Source: Rhizophagus irregularis | Lineage: Eukaryota | DNA length: 64,000 bases | Assembly (NCBI RefSeq): GCF_026210795.1 | Contig: NC_089433.1 | Location: forward strand, 124,001-188,000 | Direction: 5' to 3' | Part shown: positions 3,831-28,820 of the stretch, piece after piece | Position numbering within the stretch: the first letter of the stretch is position 1 | Layout: each line of letters starts with the position of its first letter | Translations under genes and position numbers: made by a program | Notes under the pieces: model-generated | Told to the model about the DNA's origin: nothing | The model's database searches: none | The model's input: only the letters and a program-made list of their open reading frames with translations

Positions 3831-4216
3831 TCACTTATTTTTCGTAATATTTGACTAATTTTAAAAGACAAAATAACAAAATTTATTTTTAAATTCCAAT
3901 TTACAATTCACAATTTTACATAGTATTAACTATTTCATCAGCTTCAGCAGCTAGATCCCATTCAATATCATCATTTTCATTATTTCCATTCATAGGAACA
4001 TCAGGATCCCGAAAAATACATATAAAGGTCACATGTAAGTTTGCTTAACCATATTAGTAAAATTTCCAAAAGTCATAAAATTTTATTTGTATAGATTTTG
4101 AGATTTTTTAAAAGGTTATATATATAGTTTGCGTAATAACAATCATTTTTATATATGTCATATATTTTAATTTGCGTAATCAACAGTATTTTTTAATAAA
4201 AAATATATATATATAT

Positions 4217-4445
4217 AATTCTAGCAGTCTTCTACTAATTAGCAGCATAACGCCTTGGAATTCCAGCAATTTTCTACTAATTAGCAGCATAACGCCTTGG
4301 AATTCCAGCGATTTTCTACTAATTAGCAGCATAACACCTTGGAATTCTGGCGATTTTCTACTAATTAGTAGCATAATGCCTTGGAATTCTGGCGATTTTC
4401 TACTAATTAGTAGTATAATGCTTTGGAATTCCCTAATAAGCAGCA
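4217..4445. repeat. 42-bp minisatellite, ~5.5 copies
   Basis: Unit AATTC(C/T)(A/G)GCGATTTTCTACTAATTAGCAGCATAACGCCTTGG; explains the repetitive ORFs 4172..4489 and 4180..4446. Confidence 0.95.
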
Positions 4446-4869
4446 TTACGTATAGTATAATACATAAATTTTTGAAAATACGTAATTGACGGCTAATCTG
4501 ATTGATAATAAATAATTTTTTTTCAATTTTTTGACTTTTAACAGACCGTTTTATTGAAAAAAAAAATAAAATAATTTTTTTTCAATAAAAATTTTTTTTT
4601 TGGCCTTTACTGTTATATTTTTTTTAACAACTGGCCATTTTATTAAAAAAAAATATTTGGTTTAGAATGTTATTAATATTCCTTTTTATTATTTTTCTTT
4701 AAAAGCAACTTCTTAAATCTAAAATTTATTATTTTAGATACTAATATCTTGGAAAAATATGAGTTAAGAGAAAAGTACAGTCAATTTTTTTGGAAATATT
4801 ACCATACTAATATTCCTTTTACTTTTTTCTTAGGAACTTGGAATTCAGACTAGAACTCCAATGCTCACT

Positions 4870-5231
4870 CACAGGTCGAAATTAGTTAAATAAATGCACA
4901 TCAGCTATCAATAGGTTATCAATCGGCTATCAATAGGCTACCCTATTGGTAGCCTATTGAACTTGCGCCATAATCCGTCACCAATCGGGCAGGCTGATTG
5001 ATAACCTATTGATAACCTATTAATACCTTATTGATAACCAATTTGATAAAAATACCAATAGGATACTAATAGGTTATCAATAAGTTATTAATTGGCTAAC
5101 AATCAGCCTGCCCGATTGGTGACGGATTATGGCGCAAGTTCAATAGGCTACCAATAGGGTAGCCTATTGATAGCCGATTGATAACCTATTGATAACCTAT
5201 TGATACCCTATTTAACTAATTTCGACCTGTG
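4870..5231. mobile_element. Fold-back MITE with CACAGGTCGAAA termini, 362 bp
   Basis: CACAGGTCGAAATTAGTTAAATA ... TATTTAACTAATTTCGACCTGTG; 3-bp TSD ACT; same terminal 12 bp as 75-589. Confidence 0.93.
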
Positions 5232-6665
5232 ACTGTAAGTAAAGAATTTTTTAGCTTTATTTTGTTTATTTTAGAAGTATTATTAACATTTCTATTGTTT
5301 TTTCTATTAGAAATAGTTTTTAGATTAAAACTAAACTGAAATTTTTAGTAAGTTGAGAATAGGGTAGAATTTTTTTTGTTTTATATGTGAAAATAGTATT
5401 AATATTTTTTTTCTTTAGAAATAGGATCTTCTTTTAGAAATGATTTTATAAATTATATTCTAAGTTTTTGTTATAATTTATAAAAAAATAATGAACAATC
5501 TTTTTGTTTTAGTGTTAATACTTGAATTATCAAATCATTAAATATAGTAGTATAAATAAATACGTCAGTACAAATTAATTTATGCAATTTGGCATTATGC
5601 TAGCAATTGAAAATCAATTATACTGGAAGTATATTTTAAATACAACTAATTAAATTAAAAAAAAGGCCATGATTTTATTTTTTTAATATACAAATGTCAT
5701 AAAAAAAATTTGCTTATTCTAATATAAATTATAAAGTCAGAAGTCAACTTTGCGTATTGATCTTAGTAAAAATATTTGCTTATTTTAAGGCAAAATTTTG
5801 CCGATCATCTCTGACTTTTATATGTATTTTTCGGGGTTCTGGAATATCTACTCTATCATTATCTTGAATCTCTTTCCCTATACTATCTATACTATCTTCA
5901 ATTATATCACTCAAAGTACCAACAAATGCATCCAAGTTCAAAAAATTATCAATATCTAATTCTTTCTCTTCGCCAATTACTATTTCCTTCTCATTATTGT
6001 AATAATCAAGTAGGTCATCTTCCAATTCAAGAAGGTCTTGGTCGGGATTCAAATGTGCATCAGTTAATATTTGATGAATTTCTTCAGTGGATTTTTCTGT
6101 ACCATAATATGGCAATTCTTTTTTCACATTTGCATGGTAATAGGCTAAAAGTTTATACATATTTTCAACTTTATTTAAGCCTAAACGTGTCCTTCTTTTA
6201 CCATATATCCAACCAAGACTTGACCATACTCACTCACATCCAGCTGCATGAGGTGTGATGGAAAAGAGTTTAAGCGCCAGTTGAACTAGGTAATCTTTAT
6301 CTTTAGGAAAGCTATCTTCGATAGAAAACCACAAAGTATAGGAAGTTTCAGTATCACCTATTTCAATATCAAAAGGCTTTTCTCATTTACGATATTGTTT
6401 CATTTGGTGCATTAATTCTTTATGTTCAGCATTTTTTTTTCCCATTTTCATAAAAATTTCATCCGCTACCATTAATAAATCTCTAAAAAGTCCTCGTGCC
6501 CAGTAAATCATCAGCAAGTTTTAAACAGGCGTATAAAGTGTTGAAAAATGCCATGTGTTGCTCAACGCCAAAAAACGTAGGGAAACGAACCTTTTATCAA
6601 TCAACGCCACCTAAAAATGTTGAAAACCGCGTAAAACAACACCAATTTAAATGTAAAACAACATA

Positions 6666-7093
6666 CAGTCAACTCTGGATATAACGAACCCTCCGTTCTA
6701 GGAGGTTTAGTTCGGTATATAGTGAATTCGTTATATAATATACCGAACTAGTTTTCTTTATAGGCAATTTAGGCCAAATTTGTAATGCTGGCCAAAATTA
6801 TAATTTCTTTTAACATAAATTTTCAAAAAAATTACTAGTAATTCTGGCCAGCACTATAAAATTGGCCTGGACTACTATATAGTCACATGACCGTTCGTTA
6901 TAGAAAGTATAAAGTTATTATATATCTGATATATAGGAGCTGGTTAAGTTTGGTTCGGATGTGTTATATAGTGTTTTATTATAAAAGTTCGTTATATCCA
7001 GTGAAATTATTTATAAAAAATCGGTTCTGGAAATTATGATTCAGTATAACGAGGTTTCAGTACAAACAGGTTCGTTATAACCAGAGTCGACTG
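6666..7093. mobile_element. Tc1/mariner (pogo/Tigger-like) MITE, 428 bp
   Basis: TIRs CAGTCAACTCTGGATATAACGAACC / GGTTCGTTATAACCAGAGTCGACTG; TA on both sides. Confidence 0.92.
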
Positions 7094-7574
7094 TACAGTA
7101 AAATAACGATAGTTTAAAAACGTGTATACAATGTATAAAAACGCGTATATTGATATTAAAAATGTGTAAAGCAATGATTTTATTGTATATTATTAATATA
7201 TATATTATATAAAATATGTAAATTTATTTATAATAAAATACGTATCAATTCAAATACATTATCTAATGTAAATTCCTTTTGTTATAATTGGATTGCCGCG
7301 GATTTTTAAGCGATCAATATACTAAATTTCTGTTGACATAGCGCCCCTGGTGACACAACCATAACAAGGTGGGAATGTGATTTGTACAACTGAATCACTT
7401 GATTGATCTTTCTACAAACTGAAACGTGATAATTATATTAATATTATTAACTGAATGATATTGCTAAATTGCAATTGATACATAATATAATGCATACTAG
7501 AATAATACATATAGATTAGAAGACAAAAAATAACAACAACGAATAATATCAAATTATAAAAGTCACGTGAACTT

Positions 7575-9684
7575 TTATTGCTCTTCTTCTAAATCAGCAA
7601 CTTCTAAATCAGCTGCTTGATTATCGTCCGTCGTATGCTCATCATAAACATCATCAACACAATTATCAATTCCAATGATTTCATCATCATCATCAATAGA
7701 TGTTATAGGTGTTTTGGGCAAAGACTCACATTCACATTCTTCAGAATCCTAAATAAAGAAATACAATATTACTAGTAATTTAATTTAAAACATTACATAC
7801 AATTCAGTTGAGTACTTACCACGTCTGTATCTGTTATATTTCCGGTCCATGAATCGACAATGTCTGCATCGATTTTTGACGAAAGGTGTTCCTCGTCAAA
7901 TATAACTTCTAATACTGACTGAACCCAAATGGCGTTTTCATTTGTACGCTCTTTATCAGATGCAAAAACCAATTTAATTATTAACGAAATATAAGTATCA
8001 GACGACGGATCATCTGAGTCGCTCGGTTTGTATAAATCTTCATGGACCTGTTGAACGTTTTTACTTGCTTTCCATGTTCGCATCTGTTATTTGCTGAAAT
8101 TATCTTTGAATGGCATTATTCTATTAATACCGAAAGTACTCCACAAACTTTCTTTCAATTTTCTAATGTAGTAACCTTTTTTAACGCGATTTGCAGCAAG
8201 TAACTATATTTAATAAAATAAACAAGTTGTTATAAATTTGGCAATTAATGACTAATATATAATACAAATACTACTTACTTGTGAATGCATTCTATCATCC
8301 CACAAATAATCGAACAAAACTCCTTTTCTGGACAACTTCATGAGTATTTTGGCGGATGTTTCATCATTTTCTAATTTTTCTTTAAGGCGATTTTTCATTT
8401 GTCAGTCGGTTACTCATCGATGCTCATGAAATAATTCATAAGAAAGATCTTTAATCGCATCCTTAATACATACAAATTATTATATTTAGTAAATAATATA
8501 AAGAAATACATAACTTTAAATCATATATTTACGTGATAAAATTCATCTGAGTTTTTGTCTTTCTTTTTCGTTTTACCTTTTTTTTTAACTTCGACTTCAG
8601 TTTCAACGTTGCGATGAGAATCTAATACTGACATTATATTTGAAATCTGGTCTTTTTGTTCGTTTAACATAGCTTTAAACCTTTCTTGATTATTAATAAT
8701 CGTGTTGAGTTTTGATGCTGTTTTTTGATTAATTTGTATTAATTTGGCAAATTCACCAGAACTAACTGCTATAAATTATCGTTAATAAGAATAATAAGAA
8801 CCAATTTGATAATTTATTAACAAAATAACAATGAACAAACAGTATATATCGTATCTAACCTTGATCCGTTACTTTAGATGATGATGTTATCGCATTATTA
8901 TTTGATGGCGATTCTTTACTAATCACTGCCTTAACGCTGGATGATGATGATTTACTAGAACCGGATGCTGCTTTACCACCAGATGCTGCTTTACCAGACG
9001 CTGCTTTACCACCAGATGCTGCTTTATCAGATATCGTTGTTTTAATAGAGGAAGGAGGAGAGAAGGAAGGAGGAGAAATTACCACCGAAGGGATATAAGA
9101 GGATATTGTTGATGATTCATTTATTGCCTGATGAAAACAATAAAATGTATTTAATAAACTAATAATGAATAATATAAACAATAAAAAAATTGATAACTGA
9201 TATTACTTGAGAAGATCCTTTGGTAGTTTTATTGGTACCGATAATAATCTCATCAATATCTCTATCACAAAACAAATCTAACCTTGCAATTTTCGTCTTT
9301 TTTGGAGTCTCTATTTGTGAAGCGTCTGAAATTGTTTGATGATTGGCTTCGGTATCTGTTAATTATAATGTATTTTTAGATATTCGTTCACACAAATTCA
9401 AAAAAAAACTAAAATAAACCCTTTCAAATTATTTTGTTCGTTGATCTAAAAGATATTAATTATATAAGTATATTTATACAATCATAATAATTTACAACCA
9501 AATATATATAATAATTTAAAGTTAAAATAATTACTTCTATATTTATACTCGTTGACGATCTAGTAGATCTAGTAGACCTAGTACTAGATCTAGTAGTAGG
9601 TTTTGGGCGTTTTAAATTATTAAAATCTAAAGAGCGTTTGCCGCTAGTTTTATTATTATTATTTTTGTTGTCGTCGTTATCCAT
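7575..9684 (-). pseudogene. Multi-exon accessory gene of the Plavaka element (unknown function, Ser-rich N-terminal half), with in-frame stops
   Basis: ATG at 9684 (MDNDDNK...); ORF pieces 9460-9705, 8855-9181 and 7793-8083 linked by short introns; acidic C-terminus ...VADLEEEQ*; TGA codons near 8402-8416. Confidence 0.65.
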
Positions 9685-10851
9685 TGATAAAAAGATGACT
9701 GACAAGAGAGAATTAATTGATTATTAGAATGTGAGAATGAGAAAAAAAAAATATTAGAATGTGAGAAAAAAAAGTAATCATTTTTTAACTCTTATGTGTG
9801 ATGATCTACTTGATTTACCTATACGTAAGTATACTCAAGTATACTAATGATTAGTATACTTACTTAGTGTCCAGTGTAACTTGTAACAAACATAATTAAT
9901 GTAATTACTTAATAGATGTTACTTTAAGACTAAATTGCGGCGCAATGTCACGTGTTACAACGATTCATTCGAATTTCAACGCCCACATCGCAAAAAAGTA
10001 TTAGTCATGTCACGTGTTGCAATGACAAATCTGATTCATTTCTTCACTTCGAATTTCAACGCCCACATTGCAAAAAAGTATTAGTCGTTGTTCATCACAT
10101 TGCAAAAGTATTAATCGTTGTTCATCCTTACGAAATCATGTGATGTTTCAAATTGAATTTCTGCTGATGAAGTAGACGTGATGAGTAACTATGGACAGCT
10201 AGAAATGAAAGCGTTTAACGATGAACAGAACAACTAGTAGTAGAGGTGAGCAATAAAGAGAAGGAAGAGATTAAATCTGAAGAAGAGAGAAAATTTTAAC
10301 GGGAAATTGTAAATATCGAGGATGTAAATTTTAACAAGTGAAATTTCCAACAAAATATAATTACCTTCATCCAACGCTCAGTTTTGCTTTTGGACGTTCC
10401 AGTTTACTGTATTAATTAATCCTTTATTTTATTCATCGTAAAAGTACTAATAATAATAATTATGCGTTAATTTCTATGATGTTTGTTGTGTTTGTTGACA
10501 CCTTAAATGTGAATATTTTCATCAGTATCATTACGCAGTTAACTGATGGTATCATTTGATATCCTCACCTAAATATTTAAACGACACGATGATTGATTAA
10601 TTTAATATATGTATTTCTTGATTGATCGTAATCAGTAACACTAACTGTTAACATTGTGTAAACTGTGCAATACGTCAAGCAATACTGTATTGTTAAGTAT
10701 TGTTAATATTATTGAGGCACATAGTCAATTTATTGTTAAACAAGTTAATATAATAAATCAACATGTAAAAAACCTTAATGTTTTTATATAAATTAACCTA
10801 CTTTACTAGCGTCAAATAAAAAACTTATTCACCATAAATCAACTTCAAAAA

Positions 10852-13800
10852 ATGGCTATATACTCGTGTCCACATTGTGAAAGAGTCTTCAGTCGTCGTG
10901 CTTCTCTACGAAATCATGTGAAAACTCACGATGATATAATTGATAAAGTTCTTAGAGAAATTGCTGAAGAAGTAGAACATGAACAAGAGGAAGTGGGTGA
11001 CGATGAACGACTTGAGGAGGCGAGCTACGAAGAGGAAGAGGAAGAGAGGGGGAGTACTAATAATGATGAAGTACAAGAGGAGGTGAGCTACAAAGAAGAA
11101 AGTGAAGATAATGATGAAGTACTAGAGGATGTGAACTACGAAGAAGAAAGGGAAGTTAATGATGAAGTACTAGAGGATGTGAACTACGAAGGGGAAGAGA
11201 AGACGAAGGGGAAGAAGAAGAGGAAGGGAGCAATAATGATGAACAACTAGAAGAGGTGAGCTATGAAGAGGAAGAGGAAGAGGAAGAAGAGGAAGAGGAG
11301 GTGAGAAATCAACGTTAAATGAAATTAAAATAATTTATACTTTTGTGTGCGTCTATATATATCTATATATAGAAAGCGATCGACATATTTATCAAGTATT
11401 TATTGTCTATTAACATCCATATATAGGAAGTGATTGATGAATCAAGAGACATTGAAATCGAATATTCGCTAATTGACATTGAACCAATCCTAACCTTCGA
11501 ATCTCTTGATATTAGAGTAACAAATATACCAGAATTTCCAAGCGAAGAGTTTGGAAATTTTATGGAGTTGCTTACTAAATGGAATTTGTCTGATGCATGT
11601 GGTAACGATATACTTAAATTTTCAAAAAAGATTTGCCGCGATAATGTAATTTTACCTACGTCAGTAAAAAAGGTCGTCAATTGTTGGATCAAATTGTTGT
11701 ACCACATATTTCTTTTAAAAAAGCGCCTATCATGACATATAAACAAGAAACGTATTATCTTCATTATCGTCCGATTTTTGACATTATAAAGGAATTGTTG
11801 AGCAATAAGGATATATTTGCCCATTGTACTTTTAAATTTACACTATTAAATCATAACAGAGAAAGAATATATAACGAACAATATAATGGACAATGGTAGG
11901 AAAGAGTCCAAAAATCACTTCCTAATGGTGCAAATGTATTGTCAGTAATTTTATATTCGGATACTATGACACGTGATCACTTAGGAAAGACCAGCGAACA
12001 TCCCATTTATTTGACACTTGGTAATATAGTTAGTTGGCGCAGAAATAGGCCTGATGCCAAAATACTTTTGGGTTATCTGCCGATCCTAAAGGCAAAAGAT
12101 ATTTCACAAAAGAGGTCAAAGAGTTTTCGGTTAGCCAAGCGAGTCCTTTATCAATATGCTTTAAATATATTGACACGATCGTTACTTGACTATAATGGTG
12201 AATTTGATCTTCAAACAGATAATGGTATAAAGTGGTGTTTTCCGTTTATTTCCGTAATGTTAGGAGATTTACCAGAAAATGCTGCAGTAACTTTAACATT
12301 TAACTTTGTTAATTGTCACCACCCTTGTCATAAATGTTTGGTGGAGTGTGAGAAGCTGAACAATGTGGAGTTAACAAACGATCGAATTATCTTAAGAACA
12401 CCAGAAAATATGAGATGTCTTGTTGAACAAAATTCTGCACAACAATATTCTCTACACGATATGAAAAACATCTTTTGGAATTATCCGTACGTATCACGTG
12501 ATTTTTAAAGAAAGTGTGTTTATTTTGCCAATTATTTTCTAATATATTTACTCAAAAATAAATGATAGTCAGTTAAATATTTATTTGTCAACAATACCTG
12601 ACCGAATGCATCATCTCGACTTGGGATTGTTTAATTATCAAGTGATCTACACAAGGGTGTTGTTAAAAGAATTGTGTGGTCAAATAGCGGTTGACGAACT
12701 TGATAATCGTTTGGCTAAAATCCCACGATTTTCTGGCCTTAAGATATTCAAGAATGGCCTGGAAAATATTAAGCAGTTTACTGCCAATGAATTTCGAAAT
12801 ATGATGAAGATATTTGTTTTCGTCATAGAAGGAATAGTCATAAACCACCACAAATCATCGATAAGTACATCCCGAGCCAAATGATCTGATGAAGCATTGG
12901 TTGACGTGTATTATTATTGGAATAAGATGTATTTATACAGCCGACGGGAGTATTTTAAGGAATCAGAGCTGGTGATTTTTGATGTATGATAGCGAGATAA
13001 TATGATGATTAGTTTTTTATGAATATTGCAATTAACATGATTATATTTTATTTTGTTTAAAGAATCTAATCAAACAATGGGCAAAGAGCTTTATAAAACT
13101 ATTTAAAGAATATTCTCTATCAGAACTTCGATTACCAAAGCTGCATAATTGGTGCTATCATATCATTAAGACAATTAGAGAATATGGAGCAATCAACGGG
13201 TTTACGACAGAAACGTATGAATTTTTACATAAAGAAGCTGTAAAAATACCCTATAGGTCTGGTAATAAGCGTGACCCAACAGATCAAATGATTAAATCAG
13301 TTGGTATTACAGCTAGTACGATATTCAATGCATTATCACAAATTAATATTGTTATATTATATATAAGTTTACCGAAAAGGGATAATTAAATACTTACTTC
13401 AGCGTACAAATGTTAATAGACGCAAACAAAAAACTCTAATGAATAGTTTGTTAGGCACATTTAATTTGCAAGATTTTGATGCGTTTTTCAATAATTACCG
13501 ATCAAACAATAGCTTGGCCCGTGAAGCTCTAACGGCTCTAGAATATTTTCTGGAATTGTTAAACGAGTTTTTAGATTTATGTGAAGGGTTAACCGATAAT
13601 GAAACTATTAATATTAGTTGGTATAGTTATGCTAATATTTCTTCAAGCGGGGATTACATTAGAGCAAAAAGCTTGTATTATAACGAACCATCATTTAGTG
13701 ATGTGTCAATCAGCATGAGCAAGGAAGAGTCTGAAGATTATAATACAGCCGAAGGTGGTGCATGTTTTGGCAAGGTACAGAATTTTATTTAATATTGAAC

Positions 13801-14085
13801 TACTAACAAATGATAATCCAAGCAATAACTTACTTATTTTATATTTAGATTCTTATGTTGATAATTAACGTTAAAATTATCGAAAAAGATTTGTCGTTTG
13901 ATCTTGCTCTTGTACAATGGTACAATTTTTGTAATTCAAGACAATTATACAAATATGATTGTCCTTGGTTGAAGATTATAAACACGTATAACTTTGTGCC
14001 TATTGAATCAATTATAGAATTGGTATAAGTAGTTCAACGTGCTGAACGACAAAATGAATATTTTGTTAATACATTTATGTTTTAA
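10852..14085 (+). pseudogene. Plavaka-type transposase with N-terminal C2H2 zinc finger and acidic repeat; inactivated
   Basis: CPHC..F.....LRNHVKTH finger; motifs ILYSD, HPIYLTLGNI, LLGYLP, GDLPE, CHKC, DRMHHLDLGLF, PKLHNWCYH, GFTTETYE; introns 11301-11426, 12487-12568, 12984-13062, ~13300-13367, 13774-13848; frameshifts near 11210 and 11670; stops at 11897 and 12882. Confidence 0.88.
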
Positions 14086-15002
14086 TTTCGATAAATTGCG
14101 TAAAACAATAAATACAGTATATTATACTTGCAAGTATTTAGTTAGTAGAGATAATTAATATGTTGTTTAGTAAAGTTAAAATGATATGATAATTATAGTA
14201 TAATTATACTTCGCGTTCACTGGCAGTGAAAAACGCGTATTAAGCTTACATTACATAAAACACGTGATGCAATAAAATTTTTTTTTTAAATATTAATTAT
14301 AATATATGTATATATATACTTAAATTAAATGGTACAATGGTTAGGTCGTGAGATTTGACGTATTAATAGTGTAATTGAGGTAATCGGTTCGGTTCCTAAG
14401 GTGAGCAAAATAAATATAATTTAATTAATATATTATATATATAGTTGTGTTAATATACAGTGCGTTGAACAACAATGCATAATGTGTTGAACTACACATT
14501 AGAGTTGAATGACACGTATATTAACATTAAGCGTTGATATACTCCAGTATACGGGTGTTGATTAATATTGTAAAACATGTTGAACAACTAGCTGGTATTG
14601 ATCAATGCGTATACTGGTGTGAATCAACACTTTTCAAACTTGCTGATGATTTCTGAAATATTTATTTGATATATTAAATTTAGTAAATAATAAAGTAAAA
14701 TAATAAATCATATGATTTACACGTTAAATAATTCATATTATGTAATAATTTTTTTTTTATTTATTTTTTTTCTTTTGAAAAATAAATATGCATTTAAATT
14801 TTTTTCTATTTAGTAATTATTTTCATATATTACCATAATCATTAGAATATACATAATTCAAATAATATAATTATATAATACACTATTAAATACTAAATTA
14901 TTAATAAATAAATTGTAATTTTAATTATTTTATTATAATATACTCTGCTTTTTTTTCAAAAAAAAAACCTATTGTATTCAATTTATTTACTAATTATTAT
15001 TA

Positions 15003-15827
15003 CCCTATAAAAAGTATTTATATTTAAAATATAATTAAAAACTTTTTAAAATATATTTAAAATATACTTAAAATATATTTAATTTAAAAATTGCGAAATA
15101 CTTATAATATACTTAAAATGTATTTAAAATTATCTTAAAATATATTTCTAATATATTTAATTTTTGCCCAAATACTTAAAATATACTTAAATTATATTTA
15201 AATTAAAATTTAAGTATATTAGGCCAAAGAAATAAAATTATTCGTTTCTTATGAAAAAAAATTGCTAAATTTGACCCGGCCGCCCGGAAAAAAAATTTAT
15301 TTTCAAAAAAAAATTTAGCCGATTCCTAAAAGATGATTGGTTGATTTAATAAATTTTTTGCCCGGGTTACCGGGTGGAAAAAAAAATTATTTTTTTATGA
15401 TTATGATTGGTCAAAACCAAAATCACATGACCAAATAAAATAAATTTTTTTATCTTTTCGCAACATTTACATGACCCGCCCGGTCATGAGAAACAAATAA
15501 ATTTATTTACTTGGCCTTATAGATATATTTTTTACATACTTAAAATATTCTTATAATATATTTCATAATATATTTTAAGTATATTTTAAGTATGTAAAAA
15601 ATATACTTATAATAATCTTATAATATACTTAAATTTTAATTTAAATATAATTTAAATATATTTTAAGTATATGGGCAAAAATTAAATATATTAGACATAT
15701 ATTTTAAGATAATTTTAAGTATATTTTAGATATATTAAAAATATATTATAAGTATTTTGCAATTTTTAAATTAAGTATATTTTAAATATATTTTAAGTAT
15801 ATTTTAAGTATAATACTTTTTATAGGG
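15003..15827. mobile_element. AT-rich fold-back element with CCCTATAAAAAG termini
   Basis: CCCTATAAAAAGTAT ... ATACTTTTTATAGGG; long inverted arms of ATATACTTAAAAT/ATTTTAAGTATAT repeats; symmetry extends ~12 bp further out, so exact ends are uncertain; lies just beyond the hAT intron donor near 15861. Confidence 0.8.
15222..15516. mobile_element. PIF/Harbinger-like MITE, 295 bp, nested in the fold-back element
   Basis: TIRs GGCCAAAGAAATAAAATTATTCGTTTCTTATGA / GGCCAAGTAAATAAATTTATTTGTTTCTCATGA; 3-bp TSD TTA (15219-15221, 15517-15519). Confidence 0.85.
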
Positions 15828-16735
15828 TTATAATAATTATAGGTAATCTGATTCAAACTTACCAGTATAATACGGATGTAAAAAAAAGCACAATAAATAT
15901 ATTGGATCAGCAAATTCAGCGTAACAACGGTTAAAAACTGAAATGCACTGCTGGTGAAAAACCCGGTGATCATTATTAGATAATTTTTTAATCGCAGCTC
16001 CAAGTCTTGCAAGTCCAAAAAAACAATCAGCAAGAGTGCAAGACTGAGATTCTAACGCTGCAATTGATTGTTTAATAGGACGTAAAGTAAATGCTAATGC
16101 ACGTACATCATCAAAAAATGCACATGTTCGTAGAACTGACAATACTGCTGTTGAAAGAGTTTCAGGTTTTTCACATTTTAACTAAATAAAAAGGCAAAAA
16201 AAAAGAAATTATTTGTTAAATTAATAATTAAATGAATTCAGACAAATAATTTCTAAAAGCTTACATTTTCTAATGGTACTTTATGACGCATAATTGAATC
16301 AACACAATCATACATAGTATGCCATCTGGTATCTGCCCACTTTTTCAATCTACCTCCATTAATATCGCAGGCTTTAGCTTCTTCTTTTAATGCAAAACCT
16401 TTTTTTATTAAAAAAATTATAAATTAAATAAATAAATAAATTAAAAATTAAATTACCTCTTTGATGACTTTTTTTAAAATGTCACTATAGTATTACACTT
16501 TGTTAAAATCCGATTTGCAAATGAAGTAGAGCAAATATCCTTTGAAATCAGATTAATAGCATGCACATTAAAGATATTTTTATATTATTCTGTGATAATT
16601 TGTCGTGCATTTCGAATATTTGCTCCTGAATCTGTTACAATCGCTGAAAATTTTGCCAGACTAATTTCATCAATTATTTCTTCAATTGTTTTGGCTAAAA
16701 ATTCGCCGGTATGACTTTCACTTGATAGATCTTTA

Positions 16736-17340
16736 CAGAAACCTTGAATTTTTAAACAATACCGAATTGATATAATAATGATGTTAAATAAATATCGTGG
16801 TGATATTAATTTGCAAATGATATCATTATGATATCGCAATGATATCATTTCAATATTAATTCAATATATCAAAATGATATCGTAAAGATATTTGTTTGAA
16901 AAAATATCAGATCGATATCATTTCGATATTGTTATAACAACAATGAATTTTTTGAAAAATGGGAAGTAAATACGATATTAATATGATATCATTCCAACAT
17001 TAATTCAATATCAATATGATATCGTAAAGATATCACTTTATAATTATCTAATCGATATCATAATAATATTGACAAAATATCAAATCGATATCATTTCGAT
17101 ATTTCGATATTGTTATAACAATAATGAAAAATAGAAAGTAAATACGATATTAATATGATATCATTTTGATATTGTTATAACAATAATAATTTTTTTTTAA
17201 TAAATGCAATATCAATATAATATTATTTTAATATTAATTCAATATCAAAATAATATCAAAATGATATTATCTATAAATATTGAATTTACCTTTAAAAATA
17301 TCAAATCAATCAAATATCGTTAAATTCAATTTTATAATAT
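16736..17340. mobile_element. End of a further element truncating the hAT gene; GATATC-rich subterminal repeats
   Basis: hAT coding sequence stops abruptly at 16735; repeated ATCGATATCATTTCGATATTGTTATAACAA blocks follow; other end not identified. Confidence 0.6.
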
Positions 17341-17599
17341 TTTAATAATTTGTAATCTAATTTAAAAGTTAATTTCAATAGATTTAAGTTACCGGTTATT
17401 TATTACAATAACAATTTTAATTACAGATAAAGTATACATTAGTTTAAATATTATATAACAGATAAAAAAAAATATCAATAAATCTATAATAAACTAATTC
17501 AATAAATTAGAATTATGAGTTAAATTGGTGATGTAAGTCAAAACATTATGCCTTAATACTCCAGAATCATAACTCATCAACCCAAAGTTGAGGATTAAC

Positions 17600-18200
17600 C
17601 GGGTACCTTGCTTTAGATTCAGCGACACTGCCCAAGTTGGATGGGGTGTCACAAGTACGCTTTAAAAAGACTCGCTATGACTCTATTGCAAAAAGGATAA
17701 GTATATTTGAAAACACCAGACATAAATTCACCTCAGAAGTTTGGCGGGAAACCCCTGTAAACAACTGCAGTTTCATCATTACCAAAATCATTGAACTTAG
17801 GAATACAATGAAAAAGTTCATGAGAATGACGGTTTTAAAAAAAAAATACAAATATATTCTCAACTTTGACAATTCACCCTTATTCTTTGGCCTGGAATTC
17901 TCATATGACTGCATTATTGTTGTTTGTAATTTGATCTATTGAATCCACCATAAATTGCCTGGCAAAGCGAACTTTTATTAGATAACCATAGCTTCATCAA
18001 TAAACGTTGCAATGTGTTTGGATGAATGACATCCTGTTTAATAAATTTTAAATGGGCAAACGTGGACCTAAAACCCATTAAAGATAGGCTGCAAGAAGTG
18101 CAAAGCAACCTACCAATCCACGAGTGGGTCTAAGGATTAGGGAATAAAATATACGCCAAACACACACAAGTTGATATGGAGTTAAAGTCTTACAAACTAA
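17600..18200 (-). pseudogene. Degenerate coding-like sequence, product unknown
   Basis: Higher GC than flanks; consecutive broken reading frames (LCTSCSLSLMGF...; ...AVVYRGFPPNF*GEFMSGVFKYTYPF...); strand is tentative. Confidence 0.3.
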
Positions 18201-18945
18201 AAATTATTTTTGCCACTTAATTTTTCAATAATCAATGTTATAAAAAAGTTACTTATGACTTAAGCCTATTTAATTATATATAAAACGACACTTCAAACAA
18301 ACAGAGCTCATGATATATGAGAATATCCCATCATGCCTATTTTAACCCTTGATTAAAGGATTTTCGTTACGTTAATTATATAAGCTTTACGCCTATATAA
18401 CATAAGCTTACACCTATATAATTCAAGTCCGCCTTTTCCTATAACACACTATGCACGACGGCAAACGGTATAGGAGGCAGACTCTACTTTCAGAAAGAAA
18501 GTTTTTTTTTCAAAAAAAAAAACGTACAAATAAATAGCGGTTAAATAAAATGATGGTTGAATTGACTTTTTAGGAATTAATAGGTCTTATACGTGATACA
18601 CGATCATTTAATCAGATAATTTTATAAATTTGGTATTATACGAACTTGATCAACCAATAATTGTTTAGGTAATGCACGGATGAGTTCTTTATAGGTGGAT
18701 ATTACTCAAAATAGAGCTAAATTAACTTTACACAGTTTATACAGATAATTGATTACTTAATGGTAATAACACAACAAGTTAAAGAAATTCAAATATGATT
18801 GAATCTCAACAGATATTCAAAACTTTTAAAACTTTTTGTAATTTTTCGATTGAAGCTAATTATTATTAAAGTCTATACCATTAAAAGAATAATAATTAAA
18901 TAAACTAAGAAGAAATACTCAATAAAACTCAATTTTATTTTTTTA

Positions 18946-20283
18946 TTAAAATTTTATAAAATCATTTATTAATGATTCTTCTTCATCATATAATTTTATA
19001 AGAACGCACCTAAATCTATAATTTAATTTTATTAATATATTATTATCAAAAGCATAATGTGCAAAATAAATAAAATAACTTACTTGTTTTAGGGTATTTA
19101 CTATATCACTTCCACTTCGGGAAGGGATAATTAAATTTTTAGTCATGGTATCCAACTCCTTTATACCAGATAAGTTTTTACCGTCCCAAGAAACGTGGAC
19201 GGCTTCCTTAACAAACTCAACTAACGTATCAGTTCCTCCATTATTTGTTAATTCCAAAATATTGACAGCTGTGAGTTGACGGTTTAAAAGTTTTTGCATC
19301 ACGTTTTCATCAACGTATTCTTTAATTTCTTTTTGTGAAAGATTTCCAGTTGTACCCCTATAATTAATTAATTAATAATTATACAAATAGCACTATTTTG
19401 TTGACTATAAAACAATAAAATAAATAAATACCTGCTCTTTCTTATTTTTTTGTATTTTTCCACTAAATTTAGAATATTTTGGTTGAATTTATTTCAAAAG
19501 TCAATTAAAGACTTACGAGTTTTTTTCTAAATGGCTTCTAGCTTCACTAGTATAAATTTTAAACTGAAAAATTTTTACAACCAAATCATCGAGTGCTTCA
19601 CTACTCAGATTCCTCGTTCGTAAAAATAAGCACTTTACCGACTCATCCTAGAGTCGTATTTTATCCTAAAATATTATGAGATACATTATTTAAAGATTTA
19701 AACATAATAAATATTACCATATTATATTAATACTAACTTCAGTATTCTTTGAACTAATGACATAAGATGATTCATTCATCTCATTTGCTAATCGTAAAAT
19801 ATCTGGATTTTTTAGAAGCCAGTTACATATATCTAATTTTGTACAAAACTGAAACAGATCCAGAACTGTTTTAGCCACGCCTAACTTGTCATTATCATTA
19901 TAATCATCTTCTTCTTCTTTATCTTCTTCATCTTCTTTTTCACTTTTATTCTTTACATCATCTTCTACTATTACTTCTTTTTCTATATAATATATCATTT
20001 CAATTATTTCAATTAAAATTAATAGAATAATATCAAAGAGCTAAAGCCTATATAATTAATATTTACCTAATAATAATTGATTGGTTTCTTCAATATTTAT
20101 TTTTCTCCTCTTTTTCGGTAAAGTCCTTGGATTTTTTTTCGTTCCTATCATACATATTTTTGGTATTTTACTATTTATTTTCCTTACATATAAGCAAAAA
20201 ATATAATTATATTTACAAAAAGTTATATATATACCTGTTTCAACTTCTACTTGATTATTATAAACTGCTTTACGTTTAGACAT
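18946..20283 (-). pseudogene. Multi-exon hypothetical gene, probably transposon-borne, with stops
   Basis: MSKRKAVY... start; acidic stretch; DICNWLLKNPDILRLANEMN; VKCLFLRTRN; short GT-AG introns linking ORFs 20056-20283, 19714-19998 and 18946-19302; at least one in-frame TAG (~19649). Confidence 0.6.
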
Positions 20284-21409
20284 AATATAAAATATTAGTG
20301 AAAAAAAATATAGAAAAATTTGATTAAGAAAAATAAGCGAAAAAAAAGTAAAATAAATATGTTTACTGAATTAAAGTTCTTTATATTAATTTTGAAACTG
20401 GACATTCTCATCTCGCGAGATCACACATTCACACAGTACATAATGTATGTATTCCAATTTTATACTGTAATCAATTCTAAATTCTAATAACCGAGTTCTC
20501 ATATTTATATCGTGCTCCATCTCCTATTTTTTGATCTAATGTCTCATTTTTGAAGAATGTTATATAACAATAGAATTTATTATCTATTGTCAAAATATAA
20601 AATGACTATTATAAGATAAAAATAAATGTTATGAATTTCTGTTTAAAAAAATGAATGATGAAACAATAATGTTAAACTTTCTTTTACGATTAAGTACAGC
20701 CTTTTACAGCCATAATTGCTATATTATTCTGACACTGTATGACATATCAACTCGCATGGTCAAAGAAAAAATCAAAATTTAATGATATCGGTATTATTTA
20801 TGCTTCACAATTAAACATAAGTAAGGGTAGTTAATATTATAATATTAATATAATTGGCATGTATAAATGTAGTTAGATTATTATATCTAGCGAATTTAAT
20901 CGTTTTGAAACTCGTCAAACTCGAGTTGAATTTGAGTTTGAATTTGCGTTGATGAAATTGTTAATTTTTGTTAGATTTGACTTGATTAAATATGATTTAA
21001 TTTTACAATTAGAAAAAATAAATTAAACGATTAAAATTGTAAATAAAAAATAGTATAATAAATTCATAATATCTAGTGAAATAAATTAGTTTGTGTGAAC
21101 TAAGGTTGCCTGCCGAAACCTATTTGGCTTAATGCCGAAAGGAGAAACTCCACATATAATGCCATAACTGCGAAACTGCGAAATTGCGAAACTGCCAAAA
21201 CTTGCGAAACTGCCAAAACTTGCGAAACTGCCAAAATTTGCGAAACCTTTATAATGAGTTTATCCATAGTTTCGGCATAATAAATAATAATATTTTATAT
21301 GAATTTCGGCATAATTACAGCATTCCTAATATTTTATTTTTAATTTCAGTTTCTAATAAATTTACATGTAAATAAACAACGTTATAATATTCTAATAATA
21401 ATATTATTA

Positions 21410-22570
21410 TTGAAAAAATCCTAACAAATGTAACAGTCATGATTTTTTTTCTGGAAATTCTACATAAAAAAAAATAAATTAATTAAATTTATCAAAAAAA
21501 AAAAATAACGAAACCCTTCTCCCGGTACTTTACCTTGATTACAAAAGTCTGGTTATATTTTTTCATCTGACAATCCTACAAAAAGAAAAAAAAATCAATT
21601 AAATTTATTAAAAAAAAATGATGAAAACACCTTCTCTGACCCTCCCTCACCTTAATTTTAAGAGTCTGGTCATGTTTTTCATAAATTATGAAAAAATTAA
21701 CGAAAAACTTTCACTGGTCCTCCTTTACCTTAATTTATAAATCTGTACATGTTTTTCGTCCAGCAATACTACAAATAAGGTTGCTTGTCTAAACCTTTTC
21801 AAAATCCTACGATTAGTTTCGTCAAAATTTTACTATAGATTTATTATAGTTTTGGCAGAGTTTTGGCAGTTTCGGCATTTATAATAAGTTTCGGCAGTTT
21901 CGCTTTTCTCCAAAGTTTCGCCAGTTTTTTAATATAACTTTAATATAGTTTTGGCAGAATTTCGCTTTTCGGCGAAACGCCATCTTGCCTAAACCCCTAG
22001 GTTTCGGCAAGCAACCTTAACTACAAAAAGAAAAATAAACAAGAAATTTATTAAATAAAAAAACAACGAAAAACCTTCCTCAGCCCTCTCCTTTACCTAA
22101 ATCCCAAAGTCCGGTCATGTTTTTCATCCAGAAACACTACAAAAAAGAAAAAAATAAATAAGTTAAATTTATTAAATAAAAAAACAACGAAAAACCTTTC
22201 TTTAGCCCCTCTTTTACCTAAATTCTAAAGTCCGGTCATATTTTTCGTCCGGCAACACTACAAAAAAGAAAAAAATAAATTAGTTAAATTTATTAAAATA
22301 AAAAACAACGAAACCCTTTCCCTCAACCCTTTCTTACCTCATTTCCAAAGTCCGGTCATATTTTTCGTCTGGCAACCTTACAATAAAGAAAAAATAAATA
22401 AATTTATTAAAATGGACCCTTTTCCGGTCCTTTCTTACTTCAAAAAGTCTGGTCGTGCTTTTTGTCTGGCAATCCTACAAAACGAAAAATAAACTATTAC
22501 ATTTTTTAAATAAAAACTTCCTGTCCGGACCCTCCTTAGTTCTTTACCTCATAATTTTTGTCCGAAAACC
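21410..22570 (-). repeat. ~120-bp tandem array; unit = ~80-nt intron + ~40-nt exon on the minus strand
   Basis: About 8 units; example exon 22218-22257 and intron 22258-22337 (GTAAGA...ACTAAT...TTTTGTAG on minus). Confidence 0.85.
21776..22019 (+). mobile_element. hAT-type MITE (TAAGGTTGC family), 244 bp
   Basis: TAAGGTTGCTTG ... CAAGCAACCTTA; perfect 8-bp TSD ACTACAAA. Confidence 0.95.
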
Positions 22571-23288
22571 TCAATACAAGAAAAAAGAGATCATCAGATG
22601 ATTTGTACTATGCAATCTGTCTGATAATTTAACTTTCCTGTGCCGAATTGGCGTAAATCATTGAGAATTCGATAAATTTGGCAAATTTTGGCAATTACGT
22701 CTATATAAATTCAATATGGCTGAATACGGCATTGCGTCAAAAAAAAAATCCATGCCGAAATTAATCATAATTCATAATGTTGCCGAAACTAATATATGTA
22801 TATCATATGATGTACTATGCCAAAATAGTTACGGCAGCTTAGACAGTTTTGGCAGGTTTCAGCAGTTATGGCATTTCAATATTTTAGACCAATTTTGCGA
22901 AACTAGTTTTAGCAGTTTCACATACGCCATCCCGCTGAAACCTCCTAGTTTTGGCAAGCAACCTTAGTGTGAACTCAAATTGAACTCGAGTTGAACTCAT
23001 ATTTGACACGATTGAATTCGTTCGATATTTAGATAATAACTTATTATTTGTAATTGTCTGATATAAATATATTGCAAGGGCATCTTAATCTTATTACCTG
23101 CATATATTATTTTTAATTTTTAAATAAAAAAGAAATTTATTTTTGCAGATATCTTAAACATATTACTTGCATATATTATTTTGAATGTTAACTAAAATAA
23201 ACAGAATTTCAAACTAGAGAAAATATTTATAAGGGAAGTATACGTCTTTTTTTTTAAAAAAATAATCATTTCTCAACAAATTTTAATC

Positions 23289-23831
23289 ATGCCTATAGAA
23301 TGGACCTGTGCAGCTACTGACCATTTGATAAGACAAAAAAGGTAAAATAAAATATTTTTCTAGATGTCTTCTTTCTTTTATATTACTTACATTATTCTTT
23401 TATCTAATAATTCAATAAATAATATCATAATAATGTAAAGACATGATAATGAGCGCTACCATGATATAGATGGTAGAAGTAGGGTCTCCTTCTGGGAGAC
23501 AACTGCAAGATGACTCTACCAGGACCTACGATTTTGTTACTCTGCAAGACAGTGTGAGCAATGATTCTGAAATTTAATTTGGAATTTCAATGTTAGTAAA
23601 GCAATAATAAAATAAAGATAATAAAAAAAAATGTATTAACTGTGTTGATATTTTTAGGATTTTGTTGAGTGGATAAATGGAGGTCATCGGTCTGGGTGTG
23701 GGTGGAGCAAGCTCTCACCCACCTTCGAATCTATAACCTGTCGCAATTTTTCCATTCTGAAGCCTTTTAACAATTGTATAGGAGTGTGGTTAGTTTTTCC
23801 ACTCTATGACCCTTTTGGTTGCTATATTTGA
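23289..23831 (+). pseudogene. Myb/SANT-like (trihelix-type) DNA-binding protein pseudogene, 3 exons
   Basis: Spliced (introns 23342-23440, 23592-23657): MPIEWTCAATDHLIRQKRHDNERYH...SFWETTAR*LYQDL...SARQCEQ*F*NL; the W..W..QC spacing is typical of SANT-like domains; TGA at 23511, 23562 and 23568. Confidence 0.6.
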
Positions 23832-24029
23832 GGTCGAGGGTGTGGCTTATTTGCTGGCCTTTTAAGTTGTCAAAATGGTGTAAAAAATCGTATCAGATGG
23901 CACAATAAATTTGCGATCAATTTTGGCTGACATTATGCTTTAATTTCAGCAGAGCTTTTAGGCAGAATATCTTGGTTTCCAGTAATTAGATTCGTGTGAT
24001 CTTTAGCTTATTTGAGTAAAGATAGTTAT

Positions 24030-24136
24030 CAGTTCTAGAAGACCGCGGTCCTACGGTCTTACACCATAAAAAGACAGACTGATCTGTCTTAGTGTAAGAT
24101 CACGATCTTTCAGTTCTATATCACATATAATAAGAC
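24030..24136 (+). mobile_element. Probable 5' terminus of the second hAT element
   Basis: CAGTTCTAGAAGACCG start with AGACCG/CGGTCT subterminal repeats upstream of the BED-finger exon; partner end not found. Confidence 0.45.
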
Positions 24137-24433
24137 AGGACTCCGGATATCTAATATAAAGGTCATAATGGACTTTTGGCCAAAAACACCCCTTTTTGCT
24201 GAAACTCAAAAAATCGTTTTTTGTAAATATCTCAGCATCCAGTAATTCAATTTTAATGAACTTTTTTTTATTTTGTAGCCCTCATTTAGCTCTACAATTT
24301 AAAAAAAAGTTCATCAAAATTGGACCACTGGATGCCGAGATATTTACAAAAAACGATTTTTTGAGCCCCTGAAAAATGGGCCAATCTGCCGAAAGTGTGA
24401 CTTATGACCTGTTTTGGAGATATCCGGGGTCCT
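24137..24433. mobile_element. MITE with AGGAC(T/C)CCGGATATCT termini and central long hairpin, 297 bp
   Basis: TIRs AGGACTCCGGATATCTAATATAAAGGTCATAA / AGGACCCCGGATATCTCCAAAACAGGTCATAA, related to the 4003-5840 termini; internal inverted repeat 24206-24365; no TSD visible. Confidence 0.8.
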
Positions 24434-25015
24434 CATCATGCATTTACTATTATTGTATTAGTGACAATCATATGATCATTTTCGTTTAATCAAACACTTG
24501 GTAATCATAACCTTTTAGCTAAATATGAGTTAAGCATGATAAAACTAGTTGTATTTATACAAAAATGCATCATTGTGTTTAAACTTACACAGTAGTTAAA
24601 AAATTTTTCCCATCGCAATTTTTTTTTTTATTAAATTTTTTTTTTTTTTTGAATTATAGCTGAAGAGCAAGAACAAGAGGATAATTATAACTCTTTTCCA
24701 TATGAATCCTTTATAGAGGATCAAATTTTTATTGATTATGAGGATGAGGAATATAAAGAAAGATATAGTGAAATAACAATAGAAATGACTGAAAAAGGAA
24801 CTGAAATTACTGAAACTGAAACTGAAACTTCTAGTATTAGATCTAAAGAATTAAGACAAGCTCGAGTTTGGAAACATTTTGAAAAAAAGACAATTGAAAA
24901 AGATGATAAACAAACTGAAACTTATATTTTATGTCATATTTGTGAAGGCCATTTTTCTGCAAACAATTCTACTACAACTCTTGAACGTCATTTAAAAGCT
25001 AAACATTTTGATGTA

Positions 25016-28000
25016 CACTAGTCGAATGATGGAATATCGGTAATAAATCAGTTACCTGATAATCATCTGATAATCCACATATCGTATTCTGATATTTCCA
25101 GATTAGTAATTCTGATATGGTACCGATTAATGGAAGAGATAGTTATATTTAAATTACATATAAGTTACATATCGATTTATAAATATTATGAAAATATCAC
25201 ATAAATATCATACTCATATTGGTATCCATATACCTCAATAATACCTGTATGATACTTGTATGATCATTATATGTATTATATACTGATAGATCAATAATTT
25301 TATTCTGAAATTTGTATAAATTGTATTTATTATATTTATTGCAATATTCTATCTAATGCTATCTATCGTATAATCTAATGTCCTATTTAATGTCCTATCT
25401 ATCGTATAATTTAATGTCTAAAATTTGAAATTTAAAATCTACAAAAAGAAAAAGAGATGATTAGTATTAATTTAAAGAAATTAAAGTTTTGGGAATAATT
25501 TTGAACTTACCGAAATTTTATTATACATCCAGAACTAATCACCTAAAAAAAAGAAAAAAAAATAAAACGTAAGTTAAGTTTCATTAAAAAGATTCAAAAG
25601 AAGCCTGTTGAAAACTCACCAAAATTTCATGCCTAGGATGAATATCTTGAAGTTTTGGAACTCACCCGATCTAAAGCCTGGAAACTAAAGCCAATATTTA
25701 CAAATAATTTAATAAATTTTTTTAAAAAAAATAAAGTTTTGTAAAACTTCTGAAACTCACCAATCTAATACCCCAAGGATCAAAGCCGATATCTACAAAT
25801 AAAAGAAAAAAATATTAATTAAATTTTTTAAAAAAATTGAAGTTTCAAAGTAAAACGAAACTTCAAAATCCACCTATCCAACATCTAAGAATTCAAAACT
25901 GATATTTATAAAATAAAAGAAAAAAATATTAAATTAATTTTAAAGAAAAAGATAAAGTTTCGTAAAATTTCAAAACTCATCAATCCAAAGAATCAAGGCC
26001 GATATCTACAAATAAAAAAAAAATATTAATTAAATTTTTAAAAAAAATTAAAAACAAAACTTCAAAACTTATCTACCCAAAGAATCGAAGCCAATATCTA
26101 CAAATAAGAGAAAAAATGTTAAATAAATTTAAAAAAATAAAGAAGTGAAACTTCACTTCATAACTCACCTATCCAAAGCCCTTATATATGCCTATACGAA
26201 AAAAATAATTTTTTCTTAACTTACCAGTCCGAAATAGCGTCTAAAAAAGGTTCAGAACCTGCAAAAAAAATAAGAAAGAAAGTTAGTATACGTTTATATG
26301 CCTTCTATTTAAAAAAAATTTTTTTCTTAACTTACCAGTCCAAAATGGCGTTTAAAAAAGGTCTGGAATATACAAAAAAAAAATAAAAAAGAAGGTTAGT
26401 ATACGCCTATACGCCTTCTATTTAAAAAAATAATTTTTTCTTAACTTACCAGTTCAAAATGGCGTCTAAAAAAGGTTCAGAACCTGCAAAAAAAATAAGA
26501 AAGAAGGTTAGTATACACCTATATACCATCTATTTAAAAAAAAATTTTTTCTTAACTTACCAGTCTAAAATGGCGTTTAAAAAAGGTCTGGAATATACAA
26601 AAAAAAAAAAAAAGGTTAGTATACGCCTATACGCCTTCTATTTAAAAAAATAATTTTTTCTTAACTTACCAGTCTGAAATGGCGTCTAAAAAGGGTTCAG
26701 AACCTACAAAAAAAATAAGAAAGAAGGTTAGTATACGCCTATATGCCTTCTATTTAAAAAAAAATTTTTTCTTAACTTACCAGTCCAAAATGGCGTTTAA
26801 AAAAGGTCTGGAATATACAAAAAAAAAATAAAAAAGAAGGTTAGTATATACCTATATGCCTTCTATTTAAAAAAATAATTTTTTCTTAACTTACCAGTCT
26901 GAAATGGCATCTAAAAAAAGTCCAGAACCTACAAAAAAAAAATAAAAAAGAAGGTTAGTATACATCTATACGCCTTCTATTTAAATAAAATAATTTTTTA
27001 TTTAACTTACAGTCCAAATGGCATCTAAAAAAGGTCCAGAACCTACAAAAAAAAATAAGAAAGAAGGTTAGTATACGCCTATACGCCTTCTATTTAAAAA
27101 AAAAATTTTTTAAATTTACAGTCTGAAATGATGTCTAAAGAAGGTCTAGAACCTATAAAAGAAGAAAGTAGAAGGTTAGTAGCACCTATACGCCTTCTAT
27201 TTAAAAAAAAAATTTTTTAAACTTACCGGTCTGAATGGCGTTCAAAAAAGGTCTGGAACCTACAAAAAGAAAAAGTAGAAGGTTAGTATATGCCTATACA
27301 CCTTCTATTTAAAAAAAAAAATTTTTTTAAAACTTACAGCGTATAAAAAAAGTCCAGAATCTACAAAAAGAAGAAAGTAAAAGGTTAGTATGCCTATACA
27401 CCTTCTATTTAAAAAAAAAATTTTAAAACTTACCAGTCTGAATGGCATTTAAAAGAGGACCAGAAGCACTCCGGAAGTTATAAAAAAAGAATAAAGAAAA
27501 GGTTCTATTTATTAATATATATATATACATATATTTAACTTACTGGTCTGAACCTAAAAAAAAAGAGGGAAGGAGTATGCATGTGACTCCATCACTCCAT
27601 AAAAAAAAATTTCTGAAGTTACTGGAAATAAAGTTAGTTTATTATTATTATAAGCCGATCATTATTATATAGAAAATACTAAATTTAATATCAGCATAGT
27701 ATATTATATGATATACATATTTCCGATCAGTTCCTAATTAATTTACTGATCGTTGATAATCTTTTTTTTAAAAAAAATTATTTACCTGTACTTCTTTTTT
27801 TTTGTAGGACATCAGAATATTTTTTTTTATAGGACAACTTTTTGGATTTCTTCTTTTTGTAAGATGTCAAATACTGGACTTGAATAAACTGTACAAGTAA
27901 ATAAAGTGAGTGTTATATGTGCATGTAAAAATAAAGCTCAATTCATTAAAGAAACAATACTAATGTTTCTTTTTCTAATTTTTTAGGATGCTGAGCTTCT

Positions 28001-28820
28001 TAGATTTCTTGTCTTTTGTAGGGATGTGAACCAGACAGGTGAATGGGATGGACGCATAGGAATAAAAAATATATTTATATTCCTTGGACTTCTTGGGTGA
28101 ACCTGAACTTGAATTTTAAGTATGTAAGTTAGAGGGAACTGAAGGGAAGGTTTTTTTTTATTAATATATTATATATTACTAACATTTACTCTAATTTTTT
28201 TTCTTTAGTCTACCAAACATTCTTGGTTGAACCCAGACTTGAAGATAGTATGGGTGGGAGTTTTACTTAATTGCTTTAAAGAAATGAATGTATTAATATT
28301 TCTTTTTTTACTTTGGGATGTGAACTTTAACGTATATCATTGATTAAGTCCTTTATCAATAAAAAATCAGTTTATTACATACAATAAAATAAAAATATTA
28401 CAATAAATAATTTTACAATAAATTTCAACTACATATAGATTTATTGGTAACCGTTTGAAATTAAAAAAATTATTATACAGTAAAAAGATTGGAATGCTAA
28501 AACTATGGCAAAACTCTAAAATTTTAACACTTCAAATACGATTATCTTAAAAAATTATTTGTACAATAATATAAATATCATATAAATATTATATTATTAT
28601 CATATAAAAATCAATAATTTATCAGATATCCAATAAGAACCAGATAACTTATTGATATGAGTTTAAAAAAATTATTTATAATCATGTGAATATCACTGGC
28701 CTATCGGTTACTAATATATGTTCAATTTTTAAAATGATCTGCTAGTGGCATATCGGTTTATGATATTTTTCTGATTTTATCTGATATGTCACAACTCGAT
28801 ACCTCATCATTCGACCAGTA
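25016..28820. mobile_element. Non-autonomous CACTA element, 3805 bp, with two divergent intron/micro-exon arrays
   Basis: CACTAGTCGAATGATG ... CATCATTCGACCAGT(A); 3-bp TSD GTA; removal restores KHFDV|YKDLGQ in the hAT frame; no transposase inside. Confidence 0.92.
25430..27560 (-). repeat. Tandem array of ~20 intron + micro-exon units (~110-120 bp); homogeneous part 26210-27440
   Basis: Plus strand shows recurring ACTTAC/ACTCAC (donor), CTAC/CTGC/CTAA + poly-A (acceptor, polyY) and GTTAGT/ATTAAT (branch); example exon 26225-26258, intron 26259-26335. Confidence 0.9.

Follow-up and report, generated by a model that had tools for sequence, protein, structure and literature searches.

The closest described counterparts of the elements considered here are the Pack-TYPE transposons of plants (Pack-CACTA and Pack-MULE), which are non-autonomous, have terminal inverted repeats (TIRs) and target duplications, and carry mosaic exon/intron interiors, with some cargo of unknown origin (PMC6379663, PMC8903248). 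A comparable organization is found in three transposons of the arbuscular mycorrhizal fungus Rhizophagus irregularis, an element with AGG termini, a hAT-type element, and a CACTA element, located in a 64,000-nt stretch of contig NC_089433.1 (positions 124,001 to 188,000 of the forward strand; assembly GCF_026210795.1), hereafter the window. All three have TIRs and target duplications, lack a transposase, and contain runs of intron-like sequences separated by micro-exons. They differ from the Pack-TYPE elements in that their cargo is non-coding, tandemly amplified, composed of micro-exons, and fungal, and in that its host origin, a defining feature of Pack elements, is presumed.

Tandem duplication of exons in untranslated regions also places exon-plus-intron units head to tail outside the coding sequence; that process is described in animal genes with mutually exclusive splicing, whereas the units described here would be joined serially and lie inside transposons (PMC9013439). 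Spliced non-coding RNAs are produced from fungal transposon loci in Blumeria hordei, where they are mostly antisense to transposon genes and have on average 2.3 exons, with less than 1.9% having more than 5 (PMC10648671). In contrast, the R. irregularis arrays include up to ~20 units and belong to DNA transposons that carry no genes. Introners and fungal introner-like elements are families of similar introns tied to DNA transposons (PMC9860276, PMC12130899). However, in those systems the intron itself is mobile and enters unrelated exons, whereas in the present arrays each exon is duplicated along with its intron, in tandem, within a larger element. Identification of the arrays as introners was rejected, as homology extends to the exons as well as the introns and the units are tandem.

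About two thirds of R. irregularis transposons are unclassified (PMC11075540). Neither “intron” nor “splic” occurs in the main text of two published accounts of these transposons. The Glomhopper description treats introns in a recombinase gene only (PMC13465315), and a genome preprint (10.1101/2022.10.19.511543) yielded no relevant passage. In searches of the literature outside supplements, no such arrays turned up for Glomeromycota; these families may be present in the transposon libraries of PMC11075540 and PMC8647823. Spliced non-coding micro-exon cargo would represent an overlooked class of repeats, able to mislead gene predictors.

The explanation that we favor, at a probability of about 45%, is that the arrays are passenger cargo, i.e., spliced non-coding RNA of the Pack type, with each module expanded independently by tandem duplication.

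Host elements

The AGG, hAT-type, and CACTA elements (Table 1) prove to be genuine non-autonomous TIR transposons flanked by target duplications. The AGG element has a 29-nt TIR (18/20 match in the TIR comparison) and an 8-bp target site duplication (TSD) with one mismatch; CAGG termini with a 6-bp TSD are an equally valid alternative. Its excision in silico brings the interrupted relic, which we take to be a hAT-like transposase, back in frame; a Pfam scan of this relic gave no match. The short TIR and 8-bp target duplication of the second element are those of the hAT superfamily. The CACTA element, missed by an automatic TIR finder, has a CACTA-type TIR with a 14/16 match (left end exact, two changes in the right end) and a 3-bp TSD, GTA; terminus and duplication length place it in the CACTA/EnSpm superfamily. 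Cutting it out in silico puts a BED-finger hAT gene back in frame, whose zf-BED domain is recognized by Pfam in the left flank (E value of 4e-8). The longest stop-to-stop open reading frames (ORFs) of the AGG, hAT, and CACTA elements are only 133, 100, and 81 aa, respectively, and, judged by length, are too short for a transposase. Thus, the initial annotation was right in delimiting these three transposons and in finding no transposase in any of them.

Several smaller elements share termini with these transposons. A ~250-nt miniature inverted-repeat transposable element (MITE), present in three copies (1325-1573, 21776-22019, and 29428-29675, two of them 94% identical), has the hAT-element terminus, and its copies at 21776 and 29428 end with the same terminus as that element. 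Two other MITEs (75-589 and 4870-5231) have CACAGGTCGAA termini and 3-bp TSDs and have part of their TIR in common with the CACTA element at 25016, which suggests that the CACAGGTCGAA MITEs and the CACTA element depend on related transposases. A Plavaka element with matching ends (6500-14655) lies within the hAT-like relic that also harbors the AGG element. It contains a broken transposase on the plus strand (Pfam Plavaka, E value of 1.4e-22) and, on the minus strand, a divergent accessory gene rich in introns.

Table 1. Transposons, modules, and nested repeats of the array-bearing region
Feature	Position	Strand	Description
AGG-terminus element	4003..5840	.	Non-autonomous TIR element, superfamily not assigned; in 3' part of hAT-like transposase relic
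42-nt tandem repeat	4230..4432	+	4.8 copies; in AGG element; no splice donors
Module A	4759..5418	+	AGG element; intron-like 4759-4833 (donor broken), 5235-5310, 5348-5418
Nested CACAG-terminus MITE	4870..5231	.	3-bp TSD ACT; TIR 20/20; at exon end of module A
hAT-type element	21101..22966	.	Non-autonomous; exact 8-bp TSD; TIR 17/20
Module H	21420..22568	-	hAT element; ~8 tandem units (7 full, 1 deleted)
Nested hAT MITE	21776..22019	.	8-bp TSD; at acceptor of module H
CACTA element	25016..28820	.	Non-autonomous; three-module mosaic; sits in BED-finger hAT gene
Module C2	25381..26181	-	CACTA element; 5-7 units of greater age; most exons 25 or 32 nt
Module C1	26185..27465	-	CACTA element; 12 units in tandem, each 96-116 nt, with 74-98% identity
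Module P	27860..28315	+	CACTA element; decayed run; 2 intact introns and 1 with broken acceptor

Organization of the modules

Module C1 has strong splice signals: the TACTAAC branch is found in 11/11 aligned units, which have exons of 23 to 34 nt, and a 225-nt dimer was the last part to be amplified. Between 26199 and 27010, alternate units have lost the acceptor, with the next AG 7 nt further downstream, so that exons alternate between 34 and 27 nt within the 225-nt dimer. The window copy of C2 has two broken donors and two broken acceptors. The interior of the CACTA element is a mosaic in which C1, truncated within an intron, is fused to C2; P, absent from the initial annotation, lies on the strand opposite to C1 and C2. 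In module H, the units are 51-82% identical, with introns of 74-81 nt, exons of ~40 nt, and weak donors and branch sites. The exons of module A are 36 and 37 nt long after removal of the nested MITE. The 42-nt repeat of the AGG element was rejected as an intron array because it lacks splice donors. In C1, C2, and H, homology between units spans exon and intron together, head to tail. As the units are tandem copies, the independent cases are the five modules in three elements.

The elements were scanned for intron patterns and compared with 200 block shuffles each, a control that does not model tandem duplication, so that the counts represent non-independent events. With the strict pattern (GTRAG/CTAAY/YAG units), the CACTA element contains 13 introns (shuffle mean, 0.19; 0/200 reach 13), the hAT element 1 (reached by 4/200), and the AGG element 0. 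The loose pattern gives 19 introns in CACTA (0/200 shuffles), 5 in hAT (0/200), and 2 in AGG (41/200), and the medium pattern gives 2 in AGG (0/200). Runs of at least 3 units are found only in the CACTA (up to 11) and hAT (3) elements; AGG gets to 3 units only with the nested MITE removed and the broken donor allowed. The splice signals (GT donor, branch site, pyrimidine tract, and YAG) are those of U2 introns, strong in C1, weak in H, and partly broken in C2, P, and A.

Introns of the arrays are 63-89 nt long; internal exons measure 23-42 nt, except for outliers at 78 and 137 nt. Ordinary and transposase-gene introns of the window, predicted by parsing 12 of 13 hand-picked sites, have lengths of 58-94 nt, so the array introns need no special cause for their length; only the recurring 25-42 nt exons call for explanation. 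Arrays had been reported in all three elements, with a common geometry of ~70-90 nt introns and 34-40 nt exons, and recurrence across superfamilies had been stressed. The arrays hold for the CACTA and hAT elements but not for AGG, which has 2 intact introns and falls short of the run of at least 3 units required by the initial annotation itself. The intron lengths fit that geometry, but the exons spread wider. The recurrence of non-homologous, intron-like modules in different superfamilies stands, but with AGG as a marginal case and with intron lengths that are ordinary.

Within the window, runs of at least 2 units are found in 3/3 non-autonomous elements of more than 1.5 kb and in 0/12 smaller TIR or inverted-repeat elements; several of the latter were delimited by eye and have no confirmed TSD, and the sample is tiny and was picked after the fact. 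Such runs are also absent from the Plavaka element (0/1) and from the 33 kb of mostly non-transposon DNA at 31000-64000. The loose scan finds one run of two units outside the three elements, at 6010-6243.

Relationship between the modules

Exons match within modules only: none of the 78 cross-element exon pairs is equaled by as few as 3 of 300 shuffles; one C2 exon entered this comparison 6 nt short, and two exons of H and one of A were left out of it. In searches with module profiles, no cross-module match among the best 22 of each search is better than an E value of 0.35, and in the control with the reversed window the best matches have E values of 0.014-0.78. The observation that exon sequences differ between elements is thus confirmed by both comparisons. 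The five modules are not detectably homologous at the level of their sequences, and hence the companion proposal of a single cargo module exchanged between elements is not supported.

Probable splicing of related copies

Reads were mapped to positions 20500-26090, with C1, P, and A lying outside this span, for 4 of the 24 runs listed. One of these, X14, consists of contigs and is RNA only by conjecture, and two, X21 and X22, are raw poly(A) runs. In X14, five C2 introns are removed by three joints, each seen in one contig at an identical depth of 784, which we read as a single contig. The stretches of 27 and 26 letters that separate these joints correspond to exons of exactly 32 nt when the common end letters are included, and they match exons of the window. 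Three splice sites required for this five-junction form are broken in the window copy, which indicates that the X14 contigs are from related copies and not from the window locus. An X14 contig, also from a related copy, omits exactly the 80-nt H intron predicted at 22258-22337. In 1 of the 4 mapped runs, the putative RNA run X14, relatives of C2 and H therefore lack introns at the predicted ends, and the introns appear to be genuinely used.

The X21 and X22 libraries look unstranded. Their reads reach 37-51 per direction on the H array (21435-21621) and drop almost to zero over the element ends, a distribution that speaks against DNA carry-over. Raw reads that run from 21767 directly into 22020 (21 in X21 and 23 in X22) represent the empty site of the nested hAT MITE and show that other copies of that stretch exist.

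Non-coding nature of the spliced product

When the window copies are spliced in silico, the longest ORFs are 25-48 aa, with 6-25 stops per frame, and no open frame runs across the spliced exons as it would in a protein-coding micro-exon gene. The spliced product is non-coding. Protein searches with array translations found none, but unspliced translations are poor queries and this blank says little. No confirmation was obtained that Rhizophagus annotations include many low-complexity hypothetical proteins assembled from such exons. A small nucleolar RNA host gene was ruled out by the result of an Rfam search of the whole window at the gathering score (0 matches), and a common RNA structure by the folding of 5 units, which gave no common fold (z scores of −1.8 to +2.0). 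A common m6A-type exon motif was dropped, being absent from most C2 exons by inspection with no statistical test.

The arrays might instead be decayed coding exons, derived from intron-rich accessory genes of autonomous parents or from host genes with one repeat per exon. C1/C2 and P are divergently oriented, as is the gene pair of the Plavaka element (6500-14655), and some C1 exons are 33 nt long, with one frame per exon open. However, the consensus exons of 34, 40, 32, and 25 nt are not multiples of three, the spliced copies have the stops described above in every frame, and the spliced C2 relative retains its 32-nt exons. A coding ancestry therefore seems quite unlikely.

Origin of the arrays

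According to the cargo explanation, pieces of spliced non-coding transcription units would have been acquired from transcribed source loci that kept splicing, or would have evolved there. Each module would then have grown on its own as a single exon-plus-intron unit was duplicated head to tail, and after copying to a new site it would decay, as C2, P, and A may have done here. Intron length would be simply what this spliceosome uses, and the short exon would follow from a duplication unit of ~110-120 nt that needs one whole intron; exon size may be near the lower limit for exon recognition. Movement would rely on a transposase supplied from elsewhere, independently of the array.

Several observations count against this explanation. 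A source locus outside a transposon was not found in the viral and metagenome contigs scanned, and because of this the capture step is one that we infer. The C2 motif gave 8 matches in metagenome contigs, 8/8 of them unrelated chance matches, and 5 unrelated matches in viral contigs, where the C1 motif gave 0; a general intron-exon motif matched 120 viral loci, and each of the 80 listed is a single match. As for the host-derived interior expected of a Pack-TYPE element, these contigs thus offer no source, and the one spliced relative has an undefined genomic context.

The intron cores of H, A, and P are alike beyond base shuffles: H1-P2 and A3-P2 are equaled by 0/200 shuffles, and 13 of 78 pairs by at most 10. 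This weak likeness is what one ancestral splice module exchanged between superfamilies would leave. However, a host intron scored 4/200 in the same test and the profiles gave no confirmation; as the host intron is close too, and the shuffle loses the purine-to-pyrimidine gradient, we take the likeness as one of composition. With no exon or profile homology above controls, such an exchange is extremely improbable.

The raw poly(A) reads also fit the cargo explanation poorly. They contain no exact intron joint among the 15 of 53 joints listed, and their depth on H introns is about that on H exons; the run with junctions, X14, is RNA only by guess. Raw reads that cover H introns are consistent with a plain satellite, in which a single captured intron, together with its flanks, was amplified and the splice signals are mere look-alikes, inherited but not used in tandem. 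This might best apply to C1, which is young (up to 98% identity) and outside the read mapping. On the other hand, the five consecutive junctions of the C2 relative, the exact H junction, and the conservation of splice columns in C1 leave little room for it, and we regard a satellite as very unlikely.

Other adverse points concern selection. In C1, splice-signal columns show 3 changes in 16 columns, compared with 41 for the 66 non-CpG columns outside the splice signals (P = 0.02 in a permutation test and 0.10 in a Fisher test, with broken edge units excluded, which favors lower splice-column change). This pattern in the alignment hints that splicing was kept while C1 amplified inside the element. 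Furthermore, all five unrelated modules have exons of 25-42 nt, whereas 33 kb of other DNA contain no such module, which is more regularity than neutral capture would lead one to expect. Both points would be accommodated by a convergent transposon strategy, in which a densely spliced RNA mimics a host gene, resists small-RNA and chromatin silencing, and keeps the element accessible to transposase, with selection among copies shrinking the exons to a workable minimum. Such a strategy, put forward in the initial annotation, is the main rival of the cargo explanation and is possible, if on the unlikely side. It is in line with the runs in 3/3 large elements versus 0/12 small ones, with mutually unrelated modules, and with RNA reads that concentrate on the H array. 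It is also in line with the CpG observed/expected ratios, which are gene-like in C1, C2, and H (0.88-1.2) and depleted in P (0.1) and the host hAT relic (0.37). Introns hinder silencing in Caenorhabditis elegans and human cells (PMC5554785, PMC8770142), and with exons of 32-40 nt, by simple arithmetic, 57-72% of the 24-mers of the spliced RNA would span a junction.

Against the strategy, CpG columns are the fastest changing in C1 (13 changes in 6 columns), and the array-less Plavaka transposase region keeps CpG equally well (observed/expected ratio of 1.04). C2, P, and A contain broken splice sites, many successful MITEs of the window have no introns, and the sample is tiny, selected after the fact, and includes AGG as a marginal member. 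In its bold form, which we consider doubtful, several superfamilies in arbuscular mycorrhizal fungi would have independently evolved intron-packed non-coding RNAs of close to maximal intron density, with one intron per 110-120 nt and with the splicing serving as a host-gene mark and scrambling small RNAs, so that the elements escape silencing and stay mobile. If the arrays are selected, they would provide natural pairs of elements with and without introns, with which to ask whether splicing shields foreign DNA in a fungus; the idea that splicing protects from silencing has so far been shown in worm and human cells.

Other features of the window

The window is AT rich, and its first 30 kb are rich in transposons. 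On the minus strand at 592-996 are two tandem units of ~190 nt with one intact intron, whose exon resembles, by eye, a decayed leucine-rich repeat. The ~12 kb at 31000-43400 contain no convincing long ORF and are largely free of the transposons of the first 30 kb. This region adjoins a gene for an HMG-box protein (43425-44456, minus strand) that is 99% identical over half of its length to an R. irregularis protein; the named matches among 25 are all from Glomeromycota. Outside the TIR elements, there is a ~277-nt tandem repeat at 58622-59674, which was rejected as an intron array because it has no splice signals, and a 713-nt direct duplication with 97% identity at 50447-51860.

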